Source: Bacteroidales bacterium
GTDB lineage: Bacteria; Bacteroidota; Bacteroidia; Bacteroidales; VadinHA17
Direction of reading: 5' to 3'
Assembly: GCA_040769065.1 (NCBI GenBank)
Contig: JAXGLU010000001.1
Location: 2,783,556-2,847,555, forward strand
Length of the DNA: 64,000 bases
The translations under genes were made by a program, and so were the position numbers. The stretch's first letter is position 1. Each line of letters starts with the position of its first letter. Below the pieces are notes generated by a model. That model had not been told where the DNA came from. It worked only from the letters and a program-made list of their open reading frames with translations, and searched no databases. Shown here piece by piece: positions 7,728-58,915 of this stretch.

Positions 7728-7817
7728 ATTATTTATTTTAAAGGTCGAATGGGACCCACATGTTTGAAAATTATATACATACGTGTTTGTGTTTGAGTTC
7801 AATCATGTGGGTTTCAT
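7728..7817 (-). promoter_or_regulatory. start-codon-abutting palindromic cassette, copy C1 (function unknown; candidate promoter/operator/leader module or MITE-like element)
   Basis: Reverse strand reads ATGAAACCCACATGATTGAACTCAAACACAAACACGTATGTATATAATTTTCAAACATGTGGGTCCCATTCGACCTTTAAAATAAATAAT followed directly by ATGCGGATGAAAAAG of the DUF1080 gene. Confidence 0.8.
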
Positions 7818-7841
7818 ATTTTTCCAGAAGTGAAGTTCTTA

Positions 7842-9137
7842 TTAAAGAGACAATGACCAGGGCTTCCTGTATTCTCGTTCAAGCAGGTAATCAGCAGCTT
7901 TGTCGCCAATAAACTGTTCCCTGACGGAATCCCACATGAGTTTTCTTTTCAGGCGGAAAGAGATAACAGCCAGATGCATTGGTATTGTCATCTCACGTAC
8001 ATATAACAGGTTGCTTTCGGGTTGTTTTCTTGATTTTACGGCATCTATGAAGTTCTGCTGATGTCCTGGTGAGCGTGGGAGAGTTTTCGGCACTTCATGA
8101 ATATCATTCAGGAACTCATTGTTTATATGTATTGTACGCGTTTCATAATCGCAGGTCAGAGTGCCCTTGTCCCCTTCAAAATGTGCGCCGATATGCATTT
8201 TTTCAGAGCCAGGAACCTCTGGAGGCGTTGTTGTCCAGTAAACATCAAGATCCCTGAACTTAAAATCGGCCTCTATCCATTTAGGGGCATCTGCTATGCC
8301 ATCGAAGGGTCTTTCTCCTCTTGCTTCAACACTGTACAATCCCTTCGGAGCTACAGACATGAACAATATATCAGCTATATGGCACCAGAAGTCGGCAAAG
8401 ACGCCTCCTGAATAATCAAGAAAGTAACGGTATGAACCGTGACAACGGACGGGAGTATATTCCGCCCAAGGAGCAGGCCCAAGCCATAAGTTCCAGTCAA
8501 GAGTGTCCGGGGGGTTCTGATTTGGAGGAAATCCAAGCCCGGGCGACCCGCCTGTTTTCCACAGTCGTACTGTATGTATCTTTCCAAGTATGCCGGCCTG
8601 AATTATTTCAGCAACCCGGTGGAAATTCTCTCCGGCATGGATTTGAGTTCCGAGCTGGAATACAGACTTGTTTTTTACAAGACTGGCAAGCATAGCCTGA
8701 CCTTCTCTGAGAGTGTAAGATAAAGGTTTCTCTCCATAGACATCCTTTCCTGCACTGAAGGCCATAGTCGCTATCAGTGCGTGCCAGTGGTCAGGTGTGG
8801 CACATGCGATGGCATCAATGTCTTTTCTGTCAATTACATGACGGAAGTCGTGATAAATTTCTGCACGGGAGCCGGGATTGATTTTCTGAAGCTGTTTGCG
8901 AGCCTCTTCAACCCTTAATTTATCTAGATCGCAGAGTGCTGCCACCTCGACGTCAGGCAGTGCATTGAACCAGTTCATATGAGCTCTGCCCTGGTTTCCC
9001 AGGCCAATGACAGCCACTCTTACCCTGTCGCTTGGAGCAACACCGGAAACAATACCAGGAATATATTTCATGCCAGCCATTCCCATTGCGGCGGTCTGTA
9101 TGAATTTGCGCCTGCTGATCCCCGACACTTTTCTCAT
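7842..9137 (-). CDS. Gfo/Idh/MocA-family oxidoreductase with TAT signal
   Basis: 431 aa. The TAT signal is MRKVSGISRRKFIQTAAMGMAG. The Rossmann start is RVAVIGLGNQGRAH. The family-typical segment is GKDVYGEKPL. Confidence 0.8.
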   Translation of the reverse strand: MRKVSGISRRKFIQTAAMGMAGMKYIPGIVSGVAPSDRVRVAVIGLGNQGRAHMNWFNALPDVEVAALCDLDKLRVEEARKQLQKINPGSRAEIYHDFRHVIDRKDIDAIACATPDHWHALIATMAFSAGKDVYGEKPLSYTLREGQAMLASLVKNKSVFQLGTQIHAGENFHRVAEIIQAGILGKIHTVRLWKTGGSPGLGFPPNQNPPDTLDWNLWLGPAPWAEYTPVRCHGSYRYFLDYSGGVFADFWCHIADILFMSVAPKGLYSVEARGERPFDGIADAPKWIEADFKFRDLDVYWTTTPPEVPGSEKMHIGAHFEGDKGTLTCDYETRTIHINNEFLNDIHEVPKTLPRSPGHQQNFIDAVKSRKQPESNLLYVREMTIPMHLAVISFRLKRKLMWDSVREQFIGDKAADYLLEREYRKPWSLSL

Positions 9138-9232
9138 CAGTATATAGTTTTTATTTTAACGGTATGATGGAACCCACATGTTTGAAAATTATACACATAC
9201 GTGTTTGTGTATGCAATACATATGGGTTTCAT
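9138..9232 (-). promoter_or_regulatory. start-codon-abutting palindromic cassette, copy C2
   Basis: Reverse strand reads ATGAAACCCATATGTATTGCATACACAAACACGTATGTGTATAATTTTCAAACATGTGGGTTCCATCATACCGTTAAAATAAAAACTATATACTG followed directly by the ATG of the oxidoreductase. Confidence 0.8.
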
Positions 9233-9443
9233 AGGAGGTTAATTAAGGTTACACACCATGAAGATAACAAATTTTGACTAAATCAAATTAGACTACGCCA
9301 TACAGTATATGAAGAATAGTGCTTCCTTTCTGGTGTGAAAGTGATCAATATATGCTGACTAATGGAGAATTCAATAAAATTTACAGTAAAATGAATTAAT
9401 TTGGCATTTTTATTTAGATTAGGAATTGAAATTTGTTTAGTGT

Positions 9444-57516: not shown

Positions 57517-58038
57517 ATGGGCAGGAGTGTATTGAAAGAAGTGTACCTGGGCATTGGTACAAACCTTTACGACAGGGAGAAAAACCTGCAGGATGCTCTT
57601 TCCTGCATCAGGAAACATATAGGCCTGATATCGGATGTGTCGTCTGTTTATGAGACAGAGCCGTGGGGTTACAGTGATAATAACGCTTACCTGAATTTAG
57701 TTCTGCATGTAAAGACCAGGTTTACACCTGAAATTGTTCTCAAACGGGCTATGTCAATTGAAGTCATGTTGGGCAGAACAAGGAAATGCAGACAGGGTTA
57801 TGAATCACGGGTCATCGATATTGATATCCTGTTGTATGAAAACAGAATAATAAGCAAGCCGGAACTAAAGATACCTCATCCCTTACTCCATATGAGGAAG
57901 TTTGTACTTGTTCCGCTCGCTGAGATCTTCCCCGATGGTGTACATCCGGTGCTTGATAAAACCTTTTCCCTTCTTCTTGAGGAGTGTAGTGATGATGGCA
58001 AAATCAGCAAATATGGATCGCTGCCTGGTTATTCCTAA
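57517..58038 (+). CDS. folK: 2-amino-4-hydroxy-6-hydroxymethyldihydropteridine diphosphokinase
   Basis: 173 aa. Motifs: YLGIGTNL...SSVYETEPWGY...RVIDIDILLYE...IPHPLLHMRKFVLVPLAEI. Confidence 0.88.
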   Translation: MGRSVLKEVYLGIGTNLYDREKNLQDALSCIRKHIGLISDVSSVYETEPWGYSDNNAYLNLVLHVKTRFTPEIVLKRAMSIEVMLGRTRKCRQGYESRVIDIDILLYENRIISKPELKIPHPLLHMRKFVLVPLAEIFPDGVHPVLDKTFSLLLEECSDDGKISKYGSLPGYS

Positions 58039-58718
58039 AGCATTCCGTTATCTGCATAGCTGTAATAATCCTTTTCAGTTACGATGAGATGATCAAGAAG
58101 CTGGATATCCATCAGATTGCCTGCTTCCCTGATCTTTCGGGTGATCTTATTATCCGATTCGCTGGGATTGGTATTTCCCGACGGATGATTATGACACACT
58201 ATTATGCCGGATGCCAGGCACTCAACAGCTCTCTTCATCACCAGTCTGACATCGGTAACGGTACCGCTGATCCCTCCATGACTTAACTTCATTTTTTCAA
58301 TGACTTTGTTTGAACGGTTGAGATATAGTATCCAGAATTCTTCATGACTGAGATCGCCAAGGACAGGCTGAAATATTTCAGCCGCATCTTTCGAGCATTT
58401 TATCTGGCGGGCTGCCGGTATTTCCGCAAGTTTCCGCCTTCTTCCGAGCTCCAGTGCTGCGGCAATAATCACAGCCCTTGCCTGACCGATGCCGCGAATT
58501 TTTTTGAGATCGGCAATTGACAGCTTCCCCAGGGAATTAAGGTTGTTATTGACCAGGTTGAGCAGTTCTCTTCCCAGGTCAACTGCTGATTTGTTCCTGG
58601 TTCCGGAACTGATAAGAATTGCAAGCAGTTCTGCGTCACTGAGGCTTGAAGTACCTTTCATGGCAAGCTTTTCCCTGGGCCTGTCCTCAACAGCCCAATC
58701 GGTTATCTTTAATGACAT
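58035..58718 (-). CDS. radC: RadC-family JAB/MPN domain protein
   Basis: The track ORF starts at 58787. The likely start is MSLKITDWAVEDRPREKL (58718). An HhH region is present. The JAMM motif is HNHPSGN. Confidence 0.85.
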   Translation of the reverse strand: MSLKITDWAVEDRPREKLAMKGTSSLSDAELLAILISSGTRNKSAVDLGRELLNLVNNNLNSLGKLSIADLKKIRGIGQARAVIIAAALELGRRRKLAEIPAARQIKCSKDAAEIFQPVLGDLSHEEFWILYLNRSNKVIEKMKLSHGGISGTVTDVRLVMKRAVECLASGIIVCHNHPSGNTNPSESDNKITRKIREAGNLMDIQLLDHLIVTEKDYYSYADNGML

Positions 58719-58773
58719 ATGTAAAAATATTAGCGAGACAATGTAAAGATAGGAATATTTAAGAAAATGTGCG

Positions 58774-58821
58774 TAATTTTCAACCATGTGGATTTCATCA
58801 CACCATTAAAATTATGATAAA
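58774..58821 (+). promoter_or_regulatory. right-half copy of the cassette, abutting copy C8
   Basis: TAATTTTCAACCATGTGGATTTCATCACACCATTAAAATTATGATAAA. This is the core end, the right arm and the A-rich tail. It is immediately followed by the left arm of C8. Confidence 0.65.
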
Positions 58822-58915
58822 ATGAAACCCACATATATTTCATACACAAACACTTATGCATATAATTATCAAACATGTGTGGTTCCATTCGACCATTAAA
58901 ATAAATTATATTCCG
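58822..58915 (+). promoter_or_regulatory. start-codon-abutting palindromic cassette, copy C8
   Basis: ATGAAACCCACATATATTTCATACACAAACACTTATGCATATAATTATCAAACATGTGTGGTTCCATTCGACCATTAAAATAAATTATATTCCG followed directly by the ATG at 58916. Confidence 0.8.

Follow-up and report, generated by a model that had tools for sequence, protein, structure and literature searches.

REPs are G+C-rich repeats that lie mostly after genes, carry a conserved 5' tetranucleotide and have no fixed relation to start codons. Correia elements of Neisseria end in 26-bp terminal inverted repeats, duplicate a TA and insert in either orientation, and Correia-type and other promoter-bringing miniature inverted-repeat transposable elements (MITEs) can alter transcription and form RNA hairpins. 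Rickettsia palindromic elements are read in frame and IStrons are spliced out, hence in both cases the insertion is tolerated and gene expression preserved. Insertion sequences (IS) of the IS200/IS605 type lack terminal inverted repeats, insert in one orientation 3' of a tetra- or pentanucleotide and use a guide that pairs with the cleavage sites and the target (PMC3597680). Here we describe a short repeat found at gene starts in a Bacteroidales bacterium (GTDB lineage VadinHA17), within a 64,000-nt stretch of DNA referred to as the window (assembly GCA_040769065.1, contig JAXGLU010000001.1, positions 2,783,556 to 2,847,555, forward strand). The repeat is best explained, very probably correctly, as non-autonomous mobile DNA elements of a single family that have entered 3' of the pentanucleotide ATGAA, always in the same orientation; the right-hand copy of this pentanucleotide has become the start of the gene.

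This explanation rests on comparisons between genomes, from which we infer movement. Around relatives of asd, which follows one of the window copies (C7 below), 80 loci were fetched from metagenomes and 44 orthologues at 78–88% identity were examined. Nearly all of these (42/44) lacked the element, and a conserved promoter-like flank was followed by ATT ATGAAAACAGCT. In the window and in three of the fetched loci (L119, L128 and L149), elements stand exactly between this conserved flank and ATGAAAACAGCT, with subfamilies that differ between the window, L119 and L128. The asd genes of L149 and the window are 98% identical, and L149 carries an old copy orthologous to C7 and also an extra, consensus-like young copy next to asd, which on this sequence comparison is a recent gain. 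At a second site, the flank upstream of a Gfo gene with 86% identity (L185) is homologous to that of the window and runs directly into ATGAAAAAA (ATGAAAAAAATG) with no element between. The distance from the Gfo stop codon to the start of the DUF1080 gene is 9–26 nt in L184–L189, and in the window a 24-nt spacer is followed by an element. At all three compared sites (asd, Gfo/Idh/MocA and DUF1080) the empty form has a single ATGA(A/G)A and the filled form has the hexamer at both ends.

A first-pass annotation of the window, made from the letters alone, had suggested this comparison of orthologous loci for presence or absence of the repeat, and empty sites were indeed found for three window genes. 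Among its hypotheses was a MITE-like element that lands at start codons, of which the mobility is supported by empty sites, subfamily turnover and arrays, but not the classical MITE structure, as the arms are not terminal. Two element-free asd orthologues (L108 and L132) begin with ATGATGAAA rather than ATGAAA, which may be the footprint of element loss (through recombination between the ATTATGA of the left junction and that of the tail) or an unrelated 3-nt duplication.

The window contains eight full copies (C1 to C8) and one half copy, listed here with scores from a covariance model built from 83 distinct copies:

7716–7817, minus strand: C1 (105.8 bits, E = 9.8e-15), with the left ATGAAA at 7817–7812 and the right ATGAAA at 7721–7716
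7721–7716, minus strand: right ATGAAA of C1, the start of a DUF1080 / 3-keto-disaccharide hydrolase gene (Pfam 3keto-disac_hyd)
9132–9232, minus strand: C2 (112.8 bits), whose right hexamer ATGAGA (9137–9132) is the start of a Gfo/Idh/MocA gene (Pfam GFO_IDH_MocA)
10472–10572, plus strand: C3 (102.5 bits), preceding a 229-aa protein with a signal-peptide-like start and without a Pfam family
18588–18681, plus strand: C4 (81.2 bits), an orphan, degenerate through a 7-nt deletion in the core
30588–30693, plus strand: C5 (92.7 bits), preceding a second Gfo/Idh/MocA gene (Pfam GFO_IDH_MocA)
31923–32026, plus strand: C6 (95.6 bits), preceding an S9 peptidase gene (Pfam Peptidase_S9)
51880–51981, minus strand: C7 (75.9 bits), old and diverged with left end ATGAGATCCGCATG, preceding asd (Pfam Semialdhyde_dh)
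58774–58821, plus strand: half copy, 5'-truncated and older, comprising the end of the core, the right arm and the tail (nhmmer match 58767–58813, model positions 41–87)
58822–58921, plus strand: C8 (103.6 bits), preceding an MGH1-like glycoside hydrolase gene (Pfam)

The arm pattern CATGTGGGTTCCAT, with up to two mismatches, matched the window 11 times where 0.54 matches were expected, and none of 100 shuffled sequences reached 11. The covariance model recovered exactly eight full copies (E = 7.5e-16 to 6.3e-10), its other matches being weak reverse-strand echoes of the palindromic arms only, and the eight copies could be aligned over approximately 115 columns. The half copy is joined to C8 through a common ATGAAA (58822–58827). 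Much of the first-pass description was confirmed here: the eight full copies and the half copy at the coordinates claimed (by arm pattern, covariance model and nhmmer), similarity beyond that of shuffled sequence, and the placement of seven full copies against unrelated genes, where open reading frames (ORFs) follow directly and the Pfam families agree with the names given. The orphan status of C4 also held, since the ORF after its ATGAAA (18676–18681) is just 21 codons long and 18288–19263 is without a gene (approximately 1 kb of non-coding DNA).

At the Rfam gathering threshold two tRNAs in the window passed and nothing else, and a permissive search (E ≤ 10) around three copies returned nothing relevant. 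Literature searches by sequence and by concept found no description of the element or of a repeat that targets start codons; the first-pass annotation, too, had recognised no named motif in the cassette.

The repeat also affects gene calling. Two mechanical ORF calls, 6789–7802 and 50899–51924 (both on the minus strand), begin at a TTG or ATG inside the element, and the public asd gene call starts at the first ATG of ATGATGAAA. The element thus misleads start-codon annotation, with two window ORFs affected. A RadC-like ORF (58035–58787, minus strand) has its first ATG within the reverse complement of the half copy's right arm, and the true radC start is probably further downstream.

Copies outside the window came from a scan of one genome per species with the right-arm/tail pattern, and all figures on copies and spread are counts among the matches listed. 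At least 101 stretches matched, and all but one (L067, a chance match) carry the cassette. True copies were detected in at least approximately 50 species-representative bins, labelled Bacteroidales, Rikenellaceae, Lentimicrobium or Bacteroidota and originating from digesters, biofilms, sediments and soils, with at least 18 loci in bin CAZTJT alone. No copies were found in viral contigs or plasmids. A full copy was present on a 2.7-kb contig labelled Peptococcaceae UBA6116 (L022, DIWC01000030.1), which is most likely a mis-binned Bacteroidales contig and not an occurrence outside the phylum. Many public assemblies of this organism break 53–90 nt either side of the Gfo gene, inside C2 and C1 (L195–L199, 1427–1461 nt), as is expected from a high-copy repeat, and contigs shorter than 2 kb were found in 20 of 30 index blocks.

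The repeat unit has ATGAAA at both ends, and the gene starts at the ATG of the second hexamer. With approximately 100 copies compared, the conserved ATG is that of GATGAAA, placing the start codon and AAA inside the repeat. The first-pass annotation had the cassette ending 0–6 nt before the ATG and treated the arms as terminal inverted repeats. Both points needed revision, as the unit takes in the start codon and AAA, has the same hexamer at its left end, and continues for approximately 40 nt of tail beyond an internal right arm. From left to right the unit consists of ATGAAA, CCCACATG, the core (ACAAACAC and TATAAT), CATGTGGG, TTCCAT, CAK, the tail ACCNTTAAAATMAAAATTATAT, MTG and ATGAAA. Its integrated form can be written 5'-ATGAA/A-CCCACATG - core - CATGTGGG-TTCCAT-CAK - A-rich tail - MTG-ATGAA/-3', where slashes mark the junctions, and the length from ATG to ATG is approximately 86–100 nt. 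C6 served as the reference copy for the coordinates of the sub-parts:

31923–31936, plus strand: left end, comprising the hexamer (consensus ATGAAA) and the 5' arm of helix P1 (consensus ATGAAACCCACATG), from alignment columns 7–20 and pair counts
31937–31977, plus strand: core, the P1 loop, with conserved ACAAACAC and TATAAT(TTT), from per-column information content
31978–31994, plus strand: internal 17-nt segment (consensus CATGTGGGTTCCATCAK), comprising the 3' arm of P1 and the 5' strand of helix P2, from covariation and pair counts
31995–32017, plus strand: A-rich tail, the P2 loop (consensus ACCNTTAAAATMAAAATTATAT), from per-column information content
32018–32026, plus strand: 3' strand of P2, ATGATGAAA, holding the covarying triplet, the gene's start codon and AAA, and forming the right end of the element (pairs 87–89/113–115)

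By per-column information content, the A-rich tail is the most conserved stretch of the element. The boundaries are sharp: nine copies with identical cores in one bin have unrelated DNA beyond ATGAAA...ATGAAA, and conservation stops at the hexamers, with none at any position of the flanks. In 92% of copies the right hexamer has A as its sixth base, approximately the share of AAA among AA-starting second codons of window genes (15 ATGAAA vs 1 ATGAAT). Copies whose right hexamer ends in another base (T, C or G) keep ATGAAA on the left, the young copy L032 included; the sixth base differs between the two ends in six copies, one of them young, and ATGAAC is seen repeatedly at the left end of copies that differ in their cores. 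The sequences suggest that the target is probably 5 nt, ATGAA, and the inserted unit A-CCCACATG...MTG-ATGAA.

These ends bear on whether the repeats could be integron-like attC recombination sites, each placed before the next ORF and closed at its foot by AAC...GTT. Several features would suit such sites: the hairpin is imperfect, its loop varies, co-oriented ORFs follow it directly, empty units stand in tandem and P1 has GAAAC...GTTCC at its base. The arm ends, however, are ATGAAAC / GTTCCAT as opposed to RYYYAAC / GTTRRRY, the junctions fall at ATGAA and not at G/TT, and the unit takes in the start codon. Copies are moreover dispersed on both strands, beside core genes such as asd, instead of forming a single array, with no integrase nearby, which makes attC sites an almost untenable explanation.

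Both arms of the repeat form helix P1, which is 90% paired and shows compensatory changes at two positions (CG to UA; AU to CG or GC), giving the arm pairs CCCACATG/CATGTGGG, CCTCCATG/CATGGAGG and CCCGCA/TGCGGG among approximately 80 copies compared. The covariation test on the arms proposed in the first pass therefore detects covariation, and the impression that arm substitutions were not compensatory, gained from the window copies, is reversed at this sample size. A second helix, P2, pairs TTCCATCAK with MTGATGAAA. Its variable triplet (pairs 87–89/113–115) is 97% paired with the types CG/UA, AU/CG and UA/GC; none of 500 shuffles reached the observed covariation score and sliding the partners abolished the signal. 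What had been taken for two sequence flavours of the tail (CATCAT... and CATTCG...) change in step with the triplet that precedes the start codon (ATG and CGG/CCG, respectively), and are two states of one helix, P2. A hammerhead ribozyme, brought to mind by CUGAUGA at the right end of one flavour, was rejected: the other right ends read AUGAUGA, CGGAUGA and UAAUGA, and stem II is impossible.

TTCCAT is common to P1 and P2, and 81 of 83 copies have an A opposite one of its C residues in P1 as well as in P2. Taken together, the two helices mean that the internal 17-nt segment CATGTGGGTTCCATCAK is complementary to the joined right and left ends of the element (MTGATGAA/ACCCACATG), and likewise to the target plus the left end. 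The predicted fold of a circular form is a dumbbell with the two ends abutting on the internal complement. In P1, G.U and A.C pairs are about equally frequent (14 vs 11), with no strand asymmetry, and among one-sided changes in P2 those giving G.U on the sense strand predominate (8 vs 2). The bottom strand folds better than the top, which is generic for GT-rich strands.

Could these pairings instead belong to RNA? In a structured 5' untranslated region acting as a translational switch, P2 would hide the start codon, P1 would compete with P2 for the UUCCAU common to both, and a signal (temperature, a protein or translation of an upstream frame) would shift the balance. The covariation of the P2 triplet with its three pair types, the sense-strand G.U preference and the partly mutually exclusive nature of P1 and P2 all argue for this, as does the predicted folding of the leader, whose minimum-energy structure is P2 in most copies (approximately −5.5 kcal/mol vs −2.6 for shuffles). 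However, P2 is weak, the C.A mismatch is conserved in both helices at a position where U would pair, P1 shows no strand asymmetry, and there is no Rfam match even at E = 10. If transcription starts in the core, P1 is impossible in RNA. The first-pass suggestion of a structured leader was right in its anatomy, as the start-codon helix covaries strongly, but complementarity to the element junction, at the DNA level, accounts in full for these pairings. A switch also leaves the insertions unexplained; we consider it unlikely as the explanation of the repeat, although an RNA role could coexist with mobility.

A mobile element at this position has consequences for the gene behind it. The element would supply its own A-rich leader, free of a Shine-Dalgarno sequence, and the gene would keep a working translation start. 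The main flavour of the tail places an A at positions −3, −6, −12 and −13, counted from the conserved ATG, and at these positions A is a positive determinant of translation in Bacteroidetes without Shine-Dalgarno pairing (PMC6847099). The core holds (T/A)TTG followed after approximately 20–22 nt (26–27 in the CATGATTG type) by TAATTTTC or TAATTTTA in several subfamilies, to be compared with the Bacteroidetes promoter consensus of TTTG at −33 and TANNTTTG at −7 (PMC6847099). The final G of the −7-like box is never present and the box varies between subfamilies (TAATTTTC, TAATTTTA, TAATAATC, TAATTGCG). From these motifs a promoter inside the core is possible. If transcription began at the gene's own promoter, the old AUG would be sequestered in P1 and the new AUG would stay accessible; if it began in the core, P2 alone could form.

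Read in frame with the left ATG, 45 of 94 copies stay open over the full element, compared with 1 and 12 copies for the two remaining frames. ATG-to-ATG spacings in the abundant subfamilies are 86, 95 and 98 nt, all 2 mod 3, and in the 43 open copies with such spacing the stop codon of this frame (TGA or TAA) and the new ATG overlap. Among the points noted above for an RNA switch this open frame would count as well. The stop-start overlap hints, at the level of sequence, at translational coupling in successful lineages. A conserved peptide encoded by this upstream frame was ruled out, since many subfamilies stop early, 25 copies doing so at codon 5.

Copy fate was assessed for the 129 copies complete at their 3' end. 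From their own ATG, 94 run into an ORF (at least 80 codons, or running off the end of the locus); in a further 12 the hexamer also begins a second element, 22 copies are orphans and one runs off the end of its contig. Arrays contain up to three units of mixed subfamilies and every 5'-truncated copy is the upstream member of an array. New copies would land at the right-end ATGAA of a resident copy and displace it from the gene, with upstream members left to decay, and the upstream position of truncated copies fits insertion at this site. Among upstream genes that overlapped the old start (ATGA), five keep their stop codon in the left hexamer and five read on into the element.

The 94 downstream proteins fall into 86 clusters and cover 166 Pfam families, in agreement with the first-pass claim that the genes are functionally unrelated; a regulon of paralogues is ruled out by the same count. 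Signal-peptide-like starts occurred in 60 of 90 downstream proteins and in 77 of 114 other Met-Lys ORFs from the same DNA, hence an apparent tie to secreted proteins is explained by the Met-Lys target.

A broader form of regulatory explanation is that the repeat is a cis-regulatory module of one regulon, combining promoter, palindromic operator and leader, with the arms as half-sites of a dimeric regulator and selection as the cause of repetition. The arms do flank a promoter-like (T/A)TTG, ~20–22 nt, TAATTTTC arrangement resembling the TTTG/TANNTTTG consensus (PMC6847099), changes in the arms keep both arms alike, and the absence of strand asymmetry in P1 fits recognition of double-stranded DNA. 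Set against this, orthologues in relatives do without the cassette and keep their own promoter, the downstream genes span too many families, copies occur within operons just 24 nt past a stop codon, the −7-like box differs between subfamilies, and an operator would have no reason to occur in tandem arrays, as orphans or in truncated form. As a cause of the repetition, the portable promoter/operator/leader module offered in the first pass is thus very unlikely given 86 clusters among 94 proteins and 166 Pfam families, and it survives solely as an added property, mobility being compatible with carrying a promoter or regulator site.

Returning to mobile DNA, the window contains 119 ATGAAA sites, of which 78 are in genes, 10 in elements, approximately 15 at gene starts and 16 in intergenic DNA away from starts. 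Elements occupy 6–7 of approximately 16 ATGAA(A) gene starts (~40%), one of the 16 intergenic non-start sites and none of the in-gene sites. Orientation relative to the gene is constant in approximately 130 copies, and the earlier observation that copies are co-oriented with their gene and absent from coding sequences is upheld. ATGAAA (Met-Lys) is the commonest gene start in element-bearing genomes. Insertions inside genes would be lost, and the survivors would mostly stand flush against, and co-oriented with, unrelated genes; placement at start sites would mostly follow from this loss.

Constant orientation also speaks to phase variation by an invertible promoter, in which the 14-bp arms would be inverted repeats for a recombinase. 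Inverted repeats do flank a promoter-like core upstream of genes, many of them encoding surface or secreted proteins. Yet the orientation of the core is constant relative to the arms and the gene in approximately 130 copies from independent assemblies, and only 41–50 bp separate the arms, far below known invertible promoters, which are well over 100 bp. Empty sites and tandem arrays are not explained by inversion, and we give this possibility almost no credence.

How the element would move can be outlined from its complementarity. CATGTGGGTTCCATCAK would be the guide, or splint, by which cleavage sites and target are brought into register, in the manner of the single-strand 'peel and paste' logic of IS200/IS605, driven in trans by some enzyme. 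A double-stranded circle of 95 bp seems physically unlikely, which favours a single-stranded intermediate. A fuller but tentative and somewhat doubtful scheme is a guide-directed element whose 17-nt complement programs insertion at ATGAA (Met-Lys/Met-Asn), acting as a portable gene 5' end that would exchange the leader, and perhaps the promoter, of many of a genome's genes. It would be mobilised by a single-strand (HUH-type) or other guide-using enzyme that recognises ends differently from IS608, with translation passed from the old start to the new via the stop-start overlap TGATG or through masking of the old AUG by P1.

A full-length IS with the same ends was not found in 1.19 Mb of fetched DNA. 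One element-bearing bin (L014:132–578, plus strand) encodes a 148-aa Y1/IS200-like transposase (Pfam Y1_Tnp 4.3e-25; NCBIfam transpos_IS200 2e-18), detected by tblastn with an IS200 TnpA query. The gene's flanks (1–70 and 580–860) hold repeated G+C-rich palindromes of RAYT/REP-like appearance and a copy of the element lies 1.5 kb away. Window copies are on both strands (five plus, three minus), and GC skew over 64 kb is uninformative on the direction of replication.

Several points weigh against a mobile element, or against this way of moving. No transposase or autonomous partner was found among the window genes, no recurrent family emerged among 1086 ORFs of flanking DNA, and the Y1 transposase of L014 has no sequence link to the element. 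With copies on both strands in 64 kb, occupancy of starts is 4/11 on the plus strand and 3/5 on the minus strand, which is not what strictly replication-coupled single-strand insertion predicts. The anatomy is unlike IS200/IS605, with one long hairpin in place of two subterminal ones and the complement 3' of the hairpin. Conservation of the tail far exceeds the needs of a generic A-rich leader, and the approximately 4:1 excess of true starts over orphans may reflect selection or a wider target context. Finally, C1, C2 and C7 were present without exception in the strain-level contigs sampled, with no sign of current activity there.

Other repeats and acquired DNA were observed nearby. A G+C-rich hairpin insert of approximately 23 nt, CCGAGCTTGCGAGCTCGACGAAG, always stands right after CAA and is followed by (T/C)(C/T)AA. 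It occurs in element cores (L011:191, L020, L017, L051, L055, L063), nested at two different positions of the P1 loop, and once outside any element (L085:299), and from its sequence contexts looks like a second, even smaller mobile repeat. Further G+C-rich hairpins are found at GGG/TTCCAT in L119 and L128. In the window, 37637–46583 is a low-GC island (0.35–0.38) encoding type I restriction-modification (HsdM, an AAA_13 protein, HsdS and HsdR) followed by two ORFs without a family; it adjoins a tRNA (47033–47106) and is probably acquired DNA. A 100-nt direct repeat, 82% identical, is present at 30363–30463 and 36863–36963. The second copy forms the 5' end, encoding the signal peptide, of a staphylococcal-nuclease-like gene (36902–37429), the first, immediately before C5, is a fragment without a gene, and the pair brackets C5, the Gfo gene, C6, the S9 peptidase gene and a WYL gene.

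If the mobile-element explanation is true, the repeat targets the start codon itself and repairs what it interrupts, a strategy not described in the literature searched. With approximately 40% of ATGAA(A) starts occupied in the window, such elements could shape transcription and translation of many genes in uncultured Bacteroidales of digesters, sediments and soils. In practice they mislead start-codon calling and break assemblies. They would also offer a natural, compact expression leader free of Shine-Dalgarno sequences for Bacteroidales, and a tractable case of a new scheme of target recognition by DNA complementarity.

Among described systems, IS200/IS605 elements and their short non-autonomous derivatives, the palindrome-associated transposable elements (PATEs), share with our element the lack of terminal inverted repeats, a single orientation 3' of 4–5 nt and hairpins near the ends (PMC3597680). 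In IS200/IS605 the cleavage sites complement an internal guide, and in the predicted circle of our element the ends likewise abut on an internal complement. All three empty/filled comparisons place the junction at ATGAA/ with constant orientation, as in this type, and TTCCAT(CAK) complements ATGAA at both junctions, covarying with it. That complement, however, sits 3' of the hairpin, where an IS200/IS605 guide would be 5' of the hairpin foot, and has a conserved C.A mismatch; it extends over 6–9 nt and holds the element's own right end in a helix. The element has one long hairpin with a loop of 41–50 nt instead of two small subterminal palindromes; the alignment contains no second small conserved palindrome, the right end itself being a strand of P2. 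It further differs in the lack of strand bias in the window, in the lack of a linked TnpA gene, and in having as its target a start codon for which it supplies a replacement.

REPIN/REP (RAYT) systems are similar in size (approximately 100 nt), in having two inverted arms with a spacer, in being non-coding, in reaching tens of copies or more per genome and in forming genome-specific subfamilies, and a Y1 transposase flanked by G+C-rich palindromes is present in the element-bearing bin L014. Unlike REPs, our element is A+T-rich, tied to ATGAA and extended by a 40-nt tail outside the arms. Correia elements and promoter-bringing MITEs are also small, multicopy and close to gene starts, with presence varying among relatives, but our element has non-terminal arms, a fixed orientation, ATGAA as its target and the start codon within the unit. 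Measured against classical MITEs, the element is small, non-coding, multicopy and variably present among relatives, while its ends are direct copies of ATGAA(A) and not inverted repeats; with regard to a target duplication, ATGAA(A) occurs once in empty sites and at both ends in filled sites, but orientation is fixed and the sixth base differs between the ends in six copies. IS605-derived hairpins attached to genes resemble it in lacking a transposase and being kept as RNA-type stems with G-U pairs; they stand at gene 3' ends, are recognised as IS605 and have no start-codon target. Like Rickettsia palindromic elements and IStrons it lands harmlessly, but by duplicating the start codon and leader, without in-frame coding or splicing.

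The element is therefore not a classical MITE, REP, Correia element, attC site or invertible promoter. By analogy it appears to work most like a non-autonomous element of the IS200/IS605 type, but it departs from that type in the defining feature of two palindromes. It is set apart by its start-codon target, by a regenerated start with its own leader and by an internal complement to both junctions.

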